Positions 2,110 through 35,254 of a DNA stretch of 64,000 nucleotides are shown one piece after another. The notes below the pieces were generated by a model that was not told where the DNA came from, did no database searches, and saw only the letters and a list, made by a program, of their open reading frames with translations. Numbering within the stretch: the stretch's first letter is position 1; every line of letters begins with the position of its first letter. The DNA is from Eledone cirrhosa. Taxonomy: Eukaryota. The stretch covers positions 218,426,001 to 218,490,000 of the forward strand of contig OZ024742.1 of NCBI GenBank assembly GCA_964016885.1, read 5' to 3'. The translations under genes were made by a program, and so were the position numbers.

Positions 2110-2274
2110 GTCAGATAGGGTGTGGTAAAAACCAGGTGCACCATAACCCACCAGATTACTCGATACTTGGGGTAGTAGAGTGGGTAATATGAAAAGATTC
2201 AGGATCCCGACGGTTGAGCTCCGGCCGTTTCGAAATGGCCAGAGCTCAACCGTCGGGGACCTGAATCTTTTCAT
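2110..2274 (-). mobile_element. Asymmetric hairpin insert, family F2, with the 3' half of an HHR; apex collapsed
   Basis: Inverted arms 2190-2272, an ~80-nt tail on the left arm only, flanked by (TA)n; homologous to 5590-5784, 14173-14241 and 35059-35254. Confidence 0.75.
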
Positions 2275-2547
2275 ATATATATATATATATATATATATAT
2301 ATATATATATATATATATATATATATATATACATGTGTGTGTGTCTGTGTGTGTATATAGATAGATGGATAGATATAACTGTATATTCATATATATACAT
2401 AGAGGTTTGTACATATGTATAGAGAGAGAGAGTACATATATATAGAGAGAGAGTGAAAAAGAGATGGATAGATATACCTATATATATATGTATATATGTA
2501 TATATATATATATATATATATATATATATATATATATATATATATAT

Positions 2548-3715
2548 AGTATTAAGTATACTATTTATGGTTATGCAAATACAAAAACCTTTTGTAGTTA
2601 TATATATTTTTATAAACCCTAAATAGTGGTAGGCAGTAATATATTACTACCTTATTACCAGTAAGTTAAATAGCTCAATGTAATAACATCAAATGATTTA
2701 CAGAGCAGTTATATGAATTATAAGAATCAAAGAACTGTTCAAAACATTTTTATGCTTACAACTGTTTCCTCCAAACCGAGGTTTGGATTCTTCGGAGCAA
2801 TTTATTATTGAATGAACACTTATATGACCTCCTTTTCACCCAAGAGACATACAGATACATATGCAAATATTGTGGGTCAACATTCATTACAGCATTTAGT
2901 GTGGCAGTACACAATTAGAGATTACATTCATATTAAAAGATACAATCAAAAATACAGGTTAAAATACATGAAATTAAGTGGTTATAGAGTGCAATGGTTA
3001 TACGTGTGGCAAGCACGTGCGTCTTGTTTATATAGTGTGGCAGAGAGTTACGTGTAATAGAAGCACTTAAGTAGGTAATCAAGAGTGTTAAGGGAGTTGA
3101 TCTGGTAATGAATTCTTTATATGATTGTTATAGCCTGTGCGTGGAGAAGTAATATAAGTATTAAAAATAATGTAAGCATTAAAAATATTGGAAATGCGTA
3201 GCGAAGCGATGATATGGATTTCATGCACTGCGACATTATCATAGTCCGGGGAGCGTATTTTTCAGAGTATATGCCCCTCACATAATCCACCACGATTCGA
3301 TATTGGGCGTTTGACAATCCAGTTAGAGAATCGTAGTCTGATGTTCTTTAGCTCAATACAGGAGGTTGTTACGTTGCGAGAATCGACATCGAAATATTAC
3401 CCGGAAGTGTGTGTGTGGCTAAGGGGAGTTAATGCATGAGGGGAGGTAACTCAGTGGTTTCTATTATTAACTATTAAATTGTGTCTCAAAATAGTCCCTA
3501 ACTTCTATGGTTATGCGCAGTTTCTAAAAATTTAAAGTGTTTTAACTATAATGTAGTCTATTAAGCTGTGCTGAAGGTGTTCCTATTATGGTGATTATCC
3601 TCCATCGTAGAGTGCCACAAATGAATATTATACACGACGAGCGAGATTTCTAAATTAATGATCACTGTGATTGTAGTCTACTCATAGAACCAGGCAATGT
3701 GATTGCAGAATCATA
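2548..3715 (-). mobile_element. (TA)n-flanked non-coding Penelope pLTR-like insert with a U4C HHR
   Basis: 2548-2850 is homologous to 35298-35710; no credible ORF; the upstream boundary is uncertain. Confidence 0.6.
2753..2799 (-). ncRNA. Type I hammerhead motif, U4C variant
   Basis: UGCU CCGAAGA A UCCAAACC UC GGUUUGGA G GAAA CAGUUG UA^ AGCA. Confidence 0.7.
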
Positions 3716-3798
3716 TATATATATATATATATATATATATATATATATAGTAAAATAAAATAACAAGGATGATTGGTTACTCCTTCATTACGTTTATT

Positions 3799-3890
3799 GG
3801 TTGATGACGCGCGTTTCGCCACTGTTCAGCTCAAGGTTCGATATGTATCAATCTGACCCGACTCTGCAACCCGGGGCTCGTCACACACCT
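3799..3890 (-). ncRNA. Degenerate type I hammerhead motif
   Basis: GUGACGA GCC..(~50 nt)..GGC GAAA CGCGCG UC^: palindromic stem III and GUC triplet, but C3G and a weak stem I; followed by AAUAAA and then (TA)n. Confidence 0.5.
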
Positions 3891-31504: not shown

Positions 31505-31740
31505 ATAACACAACACACAAAAACAAGTTGGTGTAGGACAGAACAAAGGAGAGACACAAAATAAGGACCTAGTCACTGAGGAGGTCACAGAATGTGTGGC
31601 GAAAGAGCTTTGACAATATATAAACAACCTTTCGGTTATTGAACCAACCAACCAACCGGAAACTTATGATAAATTGTAGTGAAAATCAACAGGTGTGGGT
31701 GTTTTTATTGGCAGCATAACCCACATCAAATATAACTATA
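31505..31740 (+). mobile_element. Solo tail-less Penelope pLTR with HHR
   Basis: Homologous to 20860-21103; GUCA CUGAGGA G GUCACA GAAUG UGUGGC GAAA GAGC UU^ UGAC at 31572-31614. Confidence 0.8.
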
Positions 31741-31897
31741 TATATATATATATATATATATATATATATATATATATATATATATGTATAGTATATTTGG
31801 CAATATACCGTATGTTTAATTAAAAACATTTAGAAGACCATTCGCAGAGAGAAATAGACAAACAGACAGACAGACAGAAAGACAGATAGATAGATAG

Positions 31898-34297
31898 ATA
31901 TGTTTCTTTATTAGCCACAGGGGCACAAAAGAAGGGGACAAATACAAAGGGGGAAGTTTACATACAATAAAAATGTGTAAAATATTATCACAAATGCAAT
32001 TTAAAAATTAGTCGATTTTCCCCAATAGGGGGAGACATTACATATGAGTAACACATACCCCCGAAAAAAATGTGCAACCCTCATCTCCAGGAGTACGAAG
32101 AGTTGTAAACCCCTTTCCTCTCTTCTTCTTTTTCCTCAACTTACAGGCTGATATAGAGAGAAGGCCCATTCACTCGGGCCATTCTCGCCACTTTCACCCA
32201 CCTTTCATAAAACTTGCTGGGGTACAGCACCTCTCTCTCTATCCTGATTCTTCTTCCAAAGTGGTATTTGAAAAAAAGAATCAATTGTTGGCCGGAGAGA
32301 AAGGTGTCTGACCTCAGCCCTTTCAACCTTGTCCACCATACAACCTCTTTCGCCATAGCTATCACACAAAGGAAAACCGCCTCTCCTTCGTTTTTGAAGG
32401 AGGGTGGCGGTTTGATCATGACAATGGACTCAGTGGTCAACCGGATTGGTCCCACCCGCGACAATAGTCGTTCTACATAGCCCCACAGGTCGGTAACGCC
32501 CGAGCAGTGTATGAATGCGTGCGCGACGGTTTCTTCGTCTCGCACGCACCTCGGACAGATCTTTTTCGCAGGGTCCCTGCCCGGGCGCCCATGTCTGTAG
32601 AGCTTGTCTCGAACTGGTAGAGCTCCTCGGTAGCACTGCCAGGCCAGGGACTTTCGGAAGTTGTCCATCGGTCCCGGGCGGAAGGTCCTACCGAACAGAC
32701 TGGCCAGTTCGTTTTCCTCTACGCCTAGAGCTTCACCGAGCGCGTCGTCGCACTTGCTGCGGATCTACCCTCTATAGAATGACGAAGTGGAGTCTCCACT
32801 GATCGCCGGGTCCGCCTGCCAGAGGGCTGTGAGCGCCTGAGCACATTCGATGTGCCAGTCGCCCATTTTCCTCGGTCTTTGCTTGACCCAGGACTGCAGC
32901 TCGGTCAGCGAGACGAGTCGTGGGAAGGCTCGCTTCACGAACGGGGCCCACACTGGTTGTCCGGTGAGGAATACGTAGAGATGCCGCAGCCTGAGCGCGT
33001 GTTTGCGCATCGTCAGCCACAGCATCCCCAGCCCTCCGTTGGAAGGGTGTTGGCAGCAGATGGATCTTCTCACCAAAGGATCCCGCCTCTTCCAAAGGAA
33101 TTGGAAGAGCGCGCACTCCATTTTGGTGAGCGTTTTGGCTGGACAAGGCACGACGGTCAAGCGGTAGTAGATAGCGGACGCTATAAAAGTGTTCGCCACC
33201 TCCGCTCGACCTTTCAAGGATAGTTTGCACTCGGCCCACTTCTGGGTGAGTGCAAACACCTTGGCCGTCACCTCGTTCCAGTTCTTCTCCACCTGGAGGT
33301 CCGGACCAAACCAGACCCCGAGCAGCTTTACCGGTCCTTCCGTCCAGCGTCCGACGACGCCATCGGAAGGGATCGGTTTGGCTCTCCACGATCCGAGTTG
33401 CAAACCGATGGACTTGTCACGGTTCAGCTTCGCTCCTATGAACCTTTCGTATTCCTTCAGTAAGGTGCCGACTTCATCGATTTGCGAGGTGCCATTACTG
33501 TCACGTCGTCGGCGTAGGCCGACGCCGCTTTCCGCCGTCCCGGTTCCAGAGGGATGCCCTGCAATAGCTCCAACTTCCGCAGTAGTGGCTCGAGAGTTTG
33601 TACGTACAGAAGAGAGGAGAGAGGGCATCCTGTCGAATGGATCGCGTGATATGGAACGGCTCCGAGAGGTAGCCGTTCACCTTGACCCTTGAGCAGATGT
33701 TGCTGTTGTGCATTGCAGCAATCCAACCCCTGAACACGGGTCCGAAGCCTGCCGCCTCAAGCACCGCATCCAGGTATCGATGGTCAACCCTATCGAAAGC
33801 CTTAGACTGATCCAAGTTGATCAGTGCCCCACCAAAGCCGGGTTTACACCCTACCCTCTCTATGATGTATCGCATGAGGTGGAGGTTGTCGTGTATGGAC
33901 CTGATCGGGATTGCGCATGTCTGCGCTTCTCCCACCAGGTTCTCAACGACAAGCGTCACCCTCTTTGCCAACACCTTGGCCAAAATCTGTAACTCTGTGT
34001 TTAGCAGAGTTATGGGCCGGAAGTTGCCTATGTCATCCCCCTGATTCTCGTCCTTCCTGACTAGTGTGACTACGCCCCCGGTCACAGAACTGGGAATTCG
34101 CCCCTTCTGCTGCCAGTTGCAGTAGACCGCTTCCAGGAGACCAGAGAATAAGTCCGACATAGCTACGTAAAATTCGTAGGGTAGACCGTCGAGACCTGGA
34201 GATTTGCGTTTGCTGCATTGGCTCAGCGCGTCCCCTATCTCAGCGGCTGAAATCGGCTTTTCGCAGAACTTCGCCTCGCTGTCTGAGAGTCGTAGTA
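31898..34297 (-). mobile_element. 5'-truncated Tx1/L1-clade LINE (RT + zf-RVT), frameshifted
   Basis: NFRPITLLN, LDQSKAFDRVDH, AYADDV and zf-RVT motifs; flanked by ATAGATAGATATGT on both sides. Confidence 0.9.
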
Positions 34298-35058
34298 AAT
34301 AGATAGATATGTGTGTTTGTGTATGTGTGTGTATTATTTATTCTTTAACATCATCGACATTAATATAAAAATTAATAATCATGTATTATTTTAATTTTTT
34401 TACTTGAATTGCTTTAGAGAAGGGCTCCAAATTGATATAGCCTCGGGCCTCAGCAGGGGAAAGTCCGGCCCTGGTTGGCTACACCTAATCTACCTGGCTA
34501 TCCAGTGATGCATAGGCCACTTGAAACAGTACTATGGTTTCAAGGGAGAATTGTTGTAACTATCGTTTACCTGACCTAGAAAACGATGCAAGGCATGGAA
34601 ACCTAGACTTGCTGTACATCTAAGTACATGTAAATCGATCTCAACTGATGATCTTTTACTGTGACAAAAAATACAGGAGTGGGGATTCAGAATTTAAATG
34701 CAAGACAAAGGAATATAAGACAAAAAAATAACAGCTAGATAGATATGTCACCCGTAAAAGTGTATATACACTAGCGCCCGCATACATATATACATATGTA
34801 TGTGTGTGTATGTATGTACTGATAATAGCTACTTTTCTAACAAAGAGAACTCAATACATGAGTAGAGTATGTATATTTATTAAGGGAAATTAAGGCATAA
34901 TTCCATAATGTATGTATACACATATATATACACATATACATACATTCACCCATACACACATTTACATACACACACGCACACAATATATATATATATATAT
35001 ATATATATATATATATATATATATATATATATATATATATATATATATATATATATAT

Positions 35059-35254
35059 AGGAAAATGTATGACCCCGACGGCAGAGCTCAAGCCGTTTCG
35101 ACGGCTATTTCTGGACTCCAGAAATAGCTGTTGAAACGGCTTGAACTCTGCCGTCGGGGGTCATACATTTTCCTATTACTCACTCTACTACCCTAAATAT
35201 TGAGTACTCTGGTGCGTTATGGTCCTTCTGGTTCCTTACCACAATTCCTTCGTT
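35059..35254 (+). mobile_element. Asymmetric hairpin insert, family F2
   Basis: Arms 35059-35114 and 35118-35175, ~80-nt tail; GAAA CGGC UUGA(G/A)CUCU GCCG UC^ GGGG. Confidence 0.8.

Follow-up and report, generated by a model that had tools for sequence, protein, structure and literature searches.

Layout of the F2 inserts

A stretch of 64,000 nucleotides from Eledone cirrhosa (GenBank assembly GCA_964016885.1, contig OZ024742.1, positions 218,426,001 to 218,490,000 of the forward strand) was analyzed, and this whole stretch is referred to as the window. The window contains copies of a short repeat, here called F2, that is about 140 nt long and non-coding. F2 carries no open reading frame (ORF) for a reverse transcriptase (RT) or a GIY-YIG endonuclease, as an autonomous Penelope-like element (PLE) would. 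Three copies are head-to-head palindromes (insert 1, 2101/2110-2274; insert 2, 5591-5784; insert 3, 35059-35254) and one is a lone arm (14173-14241), and each of the four is bounded by (TA)n. Searched with BLAST and with a profile, the window gave exactly seven F2 arms; no eighth arm was found, the next match of the profile having E=1. Tandem F2 units with a complete type I hammerhead in every unit are absent from the window.

The anatomy of the copies is asymmetric. The short arm ends at one fixed site (TTCCTA or TTTCATA, against (TA)n) in 4/4 copies, the lone arm included. A tail of about 80 nt, which spans two fixed 3' ends, is present on one arm only in all three palindromes. Cores of the arms show 91, 95 and 93% identity inside the three inserts, compared with 64-86% from one insert to another. 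For the lone arm, identity is 91% with the short arm of insert 3 and 76-84% with the remaining arms. The variable segment 3' of GGGG is common to both arms of an insert and different between inserts. This indicates that the three palindromes did not come from one hairpin. The first-pass annotation of this DNA, made from the letters alone, had described three independent, diverged inserts and a lone arm; the inserts are indeed separately made inversions at these places. It had also considered that all copies might derive from one amplified DNA hairpin, which the co-variation of the arms within inserts contradicts. A single amplified hairpin of the MITE kind (miniature inverted-repeat transposable element) likewise does not fit the one-sided tail and the several apex forms.

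Table 1. Positions of the F2 features within the window.
Feature	Position	Strand	Description
Insert 1 tail arm	2101..2232	-	Hammerhead-like 3' half, internal start site, ~80-nt tail
Insert 1 tail end	2101-2112	-	GACCCC and a run of 10 C
Insert 1 apex	2230..2233	strandless	TCGA, 4-nt palindrome common to both arms
Insert 1 short arm	2231..2274	+	Terminates at internal start site TTTCATA against (TA)n
Insert 2 tail arm	5591..5722	-	
Insert 2 short arm	5725..5784	+	AGTCCAG start, TTCCTA end; 5-nt overhang 5725-5729 is the apparent loop
Lone short arm	14173..14241	+	GAGTCCAG at 14179-14186
Lone-arm mini fold	14173-14182	+	ACTC-TT-GAGT, 4 bp; precedes GAGTCCAG; alternative reading CTCTTGA, 5/7 core match
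Insert 3 short (mirror) arm	35059..35115	-	TTCCTA end against (TA)n
Insert 3 apex	35116..35116	strandless	Single unpaired base, CTGGA-C-TCCAG
Insert 3 hammerhead-like 3' half	35133..35161	+	GAAA 35133-35136, GUC 35153-35155
Insert 3 stem III and putative stem I 3' strand	within 35133..35161	+	5 bp with near-palindromic loop; G-rich strand
Putative internal reverse-transcription start site	35170..35176	+	TTCCTAT; 4/4 window short arms stop here
Insert 3 tail between both start sites	35176..35254	+	Abuts (TA)n

The hammerhead-like 3' half

The combination of GAAA, stem III and GUC was scored in every arm and compared with 2000 shuffles. Five Watson-Crick pairs are formed in 3/7 arms (matched by 4, 7 and 8 shuffles), four pairs in 1/7 (reached by 26 shuffles), and only 1-2 pairs in 3/7 (matched by 101, 148 and 709 shuffles). 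The earlier description of a good hammerhead 3' half thus holds above chance for four of the seven arms and not for the other three. Loop III of F2 contains the palindrome GAGCTC; a palindromic loop III has been reported for metazoan and PLE hammerheads (PMC4209133). The other half of the ribozyme was said to be always missing, and this is correct: CTGANGA is found neither inside nor beside any of the four F2 copies, and the upstream strand is the mirror arm. The partner strand for stem I, GACCCC, is present at the tail end of insert 1 only.

Rfam gave no hammerhead match at the F2 copies, either at gathering or at E-value thresholds. Rfam also missed a complete-looking ribozyme in another family of the window (F3, below), and its silence on F2 is therefore weak. 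An 8-nt word stands on both sides of GAAA in some arms, so the bases 5' of GAAA pair equally well with the 5' strand of stem III and the native stem II is undefined. The candidate for stem II consists of one native strand and one strand that is the mirror arm. A half-ribozyme would be unable to cut its own template, so its loss would presumably cost the element nothing.

The apex of the palindromes

The palindrome centres lie 0 nt (insert 1), 16 nt (insert 2) and 17 nt (insert 3) upstream of GAAA. An apex immediately upstream of GAAA, as first proposed, is therefore seen in insert 1, where the TCGA centre overlaps the G, and not in inserts 2 and 3. Inserts 2 and 3 share the word CTGGACT; its reverse complement, AGTCCAG, occurs in sense in the lone arm, and the apex of insert 3 (CTGGA-C-TCCAG) is palindromic about one base. 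What had been taken for closely similar CUGGACU loops in two inserts is actually the end of the mirror arm, and the centre of insert 3 is 1 nt. Two other readings of the F2 5' boundary were dropped by eye: an element like the hepatitis delta virus ribozyme, which has no second helix partner here, and an RNA polymerase III promoter, for which well-spaced A and B boxes are lacking.

F2 in public reads and contigs

Four public runs (4 of the 21 listed) were aligned to 35090-35281 at 80% likeness. Run X1 gave 11,795 contigs, and X19 and X20 gave 18,210 and 19,407 restriction-site-associated DNA (RAD) reads; all three belong to one organism (organism A, the same species label). Run X4, from a second organism (organism B), gave 7 contigs. 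The loose ends and joints given below are the best supported, beyond which there are 491 further loose ends and 70 and 39 further joints. Contig depths are depths and not copy numbers.

Both fixed 3' ends rank among the top loose ends. At the short-arm end, 119 contigs and 1677 and 1894 reads have a loose end behind 35159 that leads into TTCCTA-(TA)n; at the tail end, the loose end behind 35265 consists of TA repeat and is seen in 394 contigs as well as in 5804 and 6234 reads. A 5' boundary is seen as well. Past 35117, contig depth falls about five-fold, from 602,683 (35111-35117) to 123,906 (35118-35124). Before 35117 there is a loose end of mixed, AT-rich and AG-terminated sequence (607 reads in X19, agreement 0.5; 62 contigs, 0.45). 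F2 copies stop near the step from (G/T)AG to TCCAG, and the sequence upstream of it is mixed and AT-rich.

The junctions themselves take many forms. The apex type of insert 3 is spanned by 293 reads in X19 and 291 in X20, and apices shorter by 2 nt by 152 and 175 reads, with losses at 35115, 35116 and 35118. In the 15 same-strand joints listed, a mirror arm ending at 35109-35124 is followed by a tail arm resuming at 35165-35228. Nine of these 15 resume at 35165-35182, around the internal start site at 35175-35176, and the deepest in contigs is 35115>35173. Microhomology of 4-5 nt is present in three of the seven skip joints listed, compared with 4.9% of the possible pairs (p ~0.004). The first-pass annotation predicted CCCC-CTGANGA-CGGCTA upstream of the stem. 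Among the loose ends and joints listed for the organism A runs, neither this sequence nor CCCC, CTGANGA or a complement occurs; a rare full-length class may still exist. The rise in X1 depth from 35090-35096 to 35097-35103, about 6%, sets a rough ceiling for copies of the predicted kind.

In the single organism B contig that has the loose end before 35169, with 30 letters visible, the F2 tail is joined to a different stem (GTGT/GCAC) with a palindromic loop ATCGAT and a GTC end, at the same distance from the internal site as the F2 stem. This contig may represent a related family with a covarying stem III, although it is suggestive only. Joints of 35090>35157 on opposite strands (~2,400-2,700 reads) were attributed to mapping and left out, since the common arm fits the mirror piece better than the mutated right arm of insert 3. 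At the C-versus-G centre, 35116, G is present in 20/293 and 15/291 reads and in 38% of contig depth; a palindromic record can align either way, so this count was not taken as a sign of orientation. F2 motifs gave 0 and 0 matches in metagenome collections and 0 and 0 in viral contigs. One prokaryote genome matched over 20 nt with unrelated flanks, which was taken as chance.

Other inverting families in the window

Inversion is common in the window, and it is not tied to stem II in any of the four other families examined. Family F4 has a palindromic insert with a tail at 35299-35660 and a non-inverted copy at 2600-2860 (-); both copies begin near TCTC, with the core about 50 nt further downstream. 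Its hammerhead-like motif is found in all three arms, with the core CCGAAGA instead of CUGANGA, an 8-bp stem II and a palindromic stem III. Both arms of the F4 palindrome (35299-35542) contain the complete motif, yet the inversion lies 36+ nt upstream of the core. The apparent loop of this palindrome (35416-35425 region) matches the upstream sequence of the non-inverted copy near 2800-2860, which identifies it as the overhang of the longer arm. The hammerheads of family F3 (19009-19230 and 19425-19570) are minimal and complete, with stem II mismatched at its base, and the F3 palindrome centre is about 6 nt upstream of the core. The likeness between the F3 and F2 tails is borderline (92, 577, 511 and 172 of 2000 shuffles). 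Family F1 (20718-21160, 31510-31736 and 37300-37430) derives from the terminal repeat of an element at 54-62 kb, with which it shares the tail start, and has a GATGGCG-like 5' start; its mirror arm ends before reaching its ribozyme. The fourth case is a near-perfect 385-nt palindrome at 14259-14643 (97%) with a 1-nt centre and a one-sided tail of about 37 nt (to 14680), in which no ribozyme was recognized.

The element at 54000-62000 is a fragmented PLE with inverted and tandem terminal repeats and an asparagine-rich insert. Hammerhead motifs lie at 54033, 54814 and 61285, and an internal head-to-head junction lies near 57550. Its ORF gave a weak RT match in Pfam, and 61-93% of the members among its look-alikes have PF26215; a CX4CxxC linker and GIY-YIG-like motifs were seen by eye. 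PLE machinery has thus been active at this region.

Two more inverted pairs at 13472-14163 and 21217-21987 have arms of 164 and 91 bp and long spacers and stand beside (TA)n. Families are stacked on the same (TA)n sites at 13472-14680 and 35059-35660, which fits repeated targeting. At 3800-3835 (-), with a (TA)n run about 50 nt downstream, Rfam Hammerhead_1 scores 25.5 bits (gathering score 34) with a degenerate core. Three decayed copies of one non-LTR (long terminal repeat) retrotransposon family lie at 11828-12835, 32141-34337 and 41568-43683, with RVT_1 in the two fragments tested. The window is AT-rich, with microsatellites and retroelement fragments throughout.

Discussion

Probable joining of two primed cDNAs at the template end

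We favor, with a probability of about 0.58, the reading that the F2 palindromes are two primed complementary DNAs (cDNAs) that were end-joined at the effective 5' end of the template during PLE-type mobilization. A Penelope-like RT/endonuclease would cut both strands of a (TA)n target, as the in vitro work on the PAc protein suggests. Each cut strand would then prime reverse transcription, one at the distal site that forms the tail end and one at the internal TTCCTAT. The cDNAs would either stop early or extend as far as (G/U)AGUCCAG, some 18 nt upstream of GAAA, which would be the effective 5' end specific to the family, and their 3' ends would be joined through 1-5 nt of microhomology. When both cDNAs reach the 5' end, a full palindrome would result whose apex falls in a self-complementary word of a few letters (GA-N-TC or TCGA), and such words at the boundary would give the recurring apex types. 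A distal cDNA that stops near the internal start site would leave the inverted arm in contact with the tail, like the product of L1 twin priming, and the loss of one cDNA would leave a lone arm. The two cDNAs probably come from one RNA. Since the cDNAs would end at the template's 5' end, the apex would mark that end and not a natural hairpin loop. The F4 palindrome serves as a control in the window, where a so-called loop is likewise an overhang of the longer arm.

PLE insertions provide the closest parallel. For endonuclease-positive (EN+) PLEs, an inverted, 5'-truncated head-to-head copy, a one-sided tail, a palindrome at the junction and a microsatellite target have been described (Arkhipova et al. 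2013, PMC3846280; Craig et al. 2021, PMC8557442). F2 shows the same architecture, with an inverted head-to-head copy in 3/4 cases, a tail on one arm in 3/3 and (TA)n beside 4/4. F2 differs from EN+ PLEs in being non-coding and only about 140 nt long, with a ribozyme cut down to its 3' half, and its tail of about 80 nt is longer than the 30-40 nt reported in those two papers. Purified PAc (Poseidon) protein was reported to cut and extend both target strands, with two internal RNA start sites bounding the tail, and ribozyme cleavage was not required (Frangieh et al. 2024, PMC11167929). Similarly, F2 has two start sites that bound a tail downstream of the hammerhead and an AT-rich target, and its cDNA passes the cut site, as that of PAc does, which fits an uncleaved template. 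The main text of the PAc paper has no account of inverted junctions; together with both-strand priming, the F2 junction forms suggest two primed cDNAs from one RNA joined by microhomology.

L1 twin priming is a further parallel. In the model credited to Ostertag and Kazazian in 2001, both sides of the break are said to prime, and the inverted 5' part is reportedly joined by microhomology to the direct 3' part near the internal priming site. F2 differs from L1 twin priming, as described in PMC2246262, in having a fixed internal site and in often proceeding to full palindromes. Metazoan non-LTR retrozymes resemble F2 in being short, non-coding, type I hammerhead-like with a palindromic loop III, and probably PLE-dependent (Cervera and de la Pena 2020, PMC7229834; bioRxiv 10.64898/2026.07.22.740005). 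In contrast to these retrozymes, F2 copies are inverted pairs, and neither a tandem array nor a complete ribozyme was seen. A literature search in which subscription journals were thinly covered turned up no publication linking the inversion points of PLEs to hammerhead stem II and none proposing twin priming for PLEs.

Several points count against two end-joined cDNAs. The 5' end is deduced from DNA copies with no master copy among them, and the conservation of stem III and GUC across subfamilies may mean that the masters have a complete ribozyme. No similarity between F2 and the ORF-bearing element at 54-62 kb was detected, so no sequence link ties that element to F2 as its mobilizer. In the joint scoring, a minimum of 20 letters forces the mirror ends to at least 35109. 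Alignments may restart past the variable segment 35160-35170 and inflate the cluster at 35165-35182. The joint 35124>35176 is probably another type of event, and the two joints leading to 35198 are perhaps one. Library chimeras likewise favor microhomology. RAD reads appear to begin at AATT in the arm of one subfamily (loose end 35130, agreement 0.99), which thins the coverage of the apex.

Alternative readings

According to the first-pass annotation, the cDNA folds back or anneals at a long natural stem II, so that RNA structure fixes the apex. The 5' ends do cluster where stem II would sit, in a zone of about 20 nt upstream of GAAA; the mini fold of the lone arm could be the tip of a long hairpin, and the apex type of insert 3 is spanned by 293 and 291 reads. 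The role given to stem II itself is not supported, and as a whole this reading appears improbable. Both the left strand and the loop of the supposed stem are fully accounted for by the mirror arm. A perfect 18-bp stem with a 1-nt loop is implausible as a helix II. Copies with CTGANGA followed by the reverse complement of AGTCCAGAAATAGCCGTC, or non-inverted copies with CTGANGA and a stem II 5' strand of the GACGGCTA type, would be expected, and no such upstream sequence is among the listed loose ends, with the small X1 depth rise as ceiling. Many junctions are asymmetric and distant from any stem II, and the three other hammerhead families of the window invert outside stem II, F4 despite its 8-bp stem. 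Marginally less probable again is self-priming by fold-back on an antisense template, as was proposed for junction palindromes of PLEs by Arkhipova et al. (PMC3846280). A short self-primed copy would suit the 5' mini fold of the lone arm; however, it leaves unexplained the joints in which a full mirror arm passes directly into the tail and there is no right arm, and loops of 0-1 nt cannot be folded by a single strand. The amplification of a few palindromic masters, MITE-like or as palindromic RNA, with asymmetric forms arising by later deletions, is the least probable of all. Some junctions do have a high contig depth (341, 145, 89 and 64, compared with ~7-12 for the longest single contigs), and secondary amplification is conceivable for these. 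Against it, in at least three subfamilies the two arms of an insert vary together, the ends are asymmetric, and there are many apex forms and 5'-truncated tails. Hairpin slippage, moreover, usually deletes both arms and not one.

A circular or tandem retrozyme template is unlikely, but less so than the three readings above. The master would be a type I hammerhead monomer of about 150 nt, and the missing half would lie between the tail end and the 5' boundary, with the stem I strand GACCCC followed by a core that ends in the GA of GAGUCC. The cDNAs would halt on meeting the distal priming complex on the same circle, and the unseen piece would be the footprint of the RT. The GACCCC at the tail end of insert 1 does complement GGGGUC after the cut triplet; however, it is present in 1/3 tail arms, and GA before a C-run is a 1-in-16 chance. 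The Rfam type I consensus has GA-GU ending the core and opening stem II, as in the F2 boundary GAGU, but the implied stem II pairs poorly (G-C, U.U, C-G, then a mismatch). The lone arm matches 5/7 core letters at the place of the boundary, roughly the level expected by chance (3 of 5 free letters). By hand count the length would be 102 + 5 + 42 = ~149 nt with only five core letters missing, within the 51-972 bp reported for non-LTR retrozyme consensus lengths (bioRxiv 10.64898/2026.07.22.740005), and circular templates for PLEs have been proposed earlier (PMC4209133). Against this, no such loose end is among those listed, and the window has no tandem F2. A more specific version is that a dimeric Penelope RT copies one circular or tandem hammerhead RNA of about 150 nt from the two fixed sites simultaneously, that the cDNAs halt before the distal site and omit the CUGAU half, and that their ends anneal into the palindrome; this is a shade less likely still.

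Meaning of the F2 family

F2 is a real, very abundant and new family, and its insertion architecture itself was already known. The origin of the head-to-head palindromes of PLEs is unsettled: self-priming was proposed in 2013, and two start sites with priming on both strands were shown in 2024. If the circular reading is true, F2 would give direct evidence for circular-RNA templates and for twin priming on a single RNA in the PLE-driven movement of retrozymes, and the catalytic CUGAU half would be systematically left out of the genome copies. F2 is tiny and very abundant, its two start sites and its 5' boundary are fixed, and its junctions take many forms, which makes it a convenient natural data set for deciding between twin priming and fold-back.

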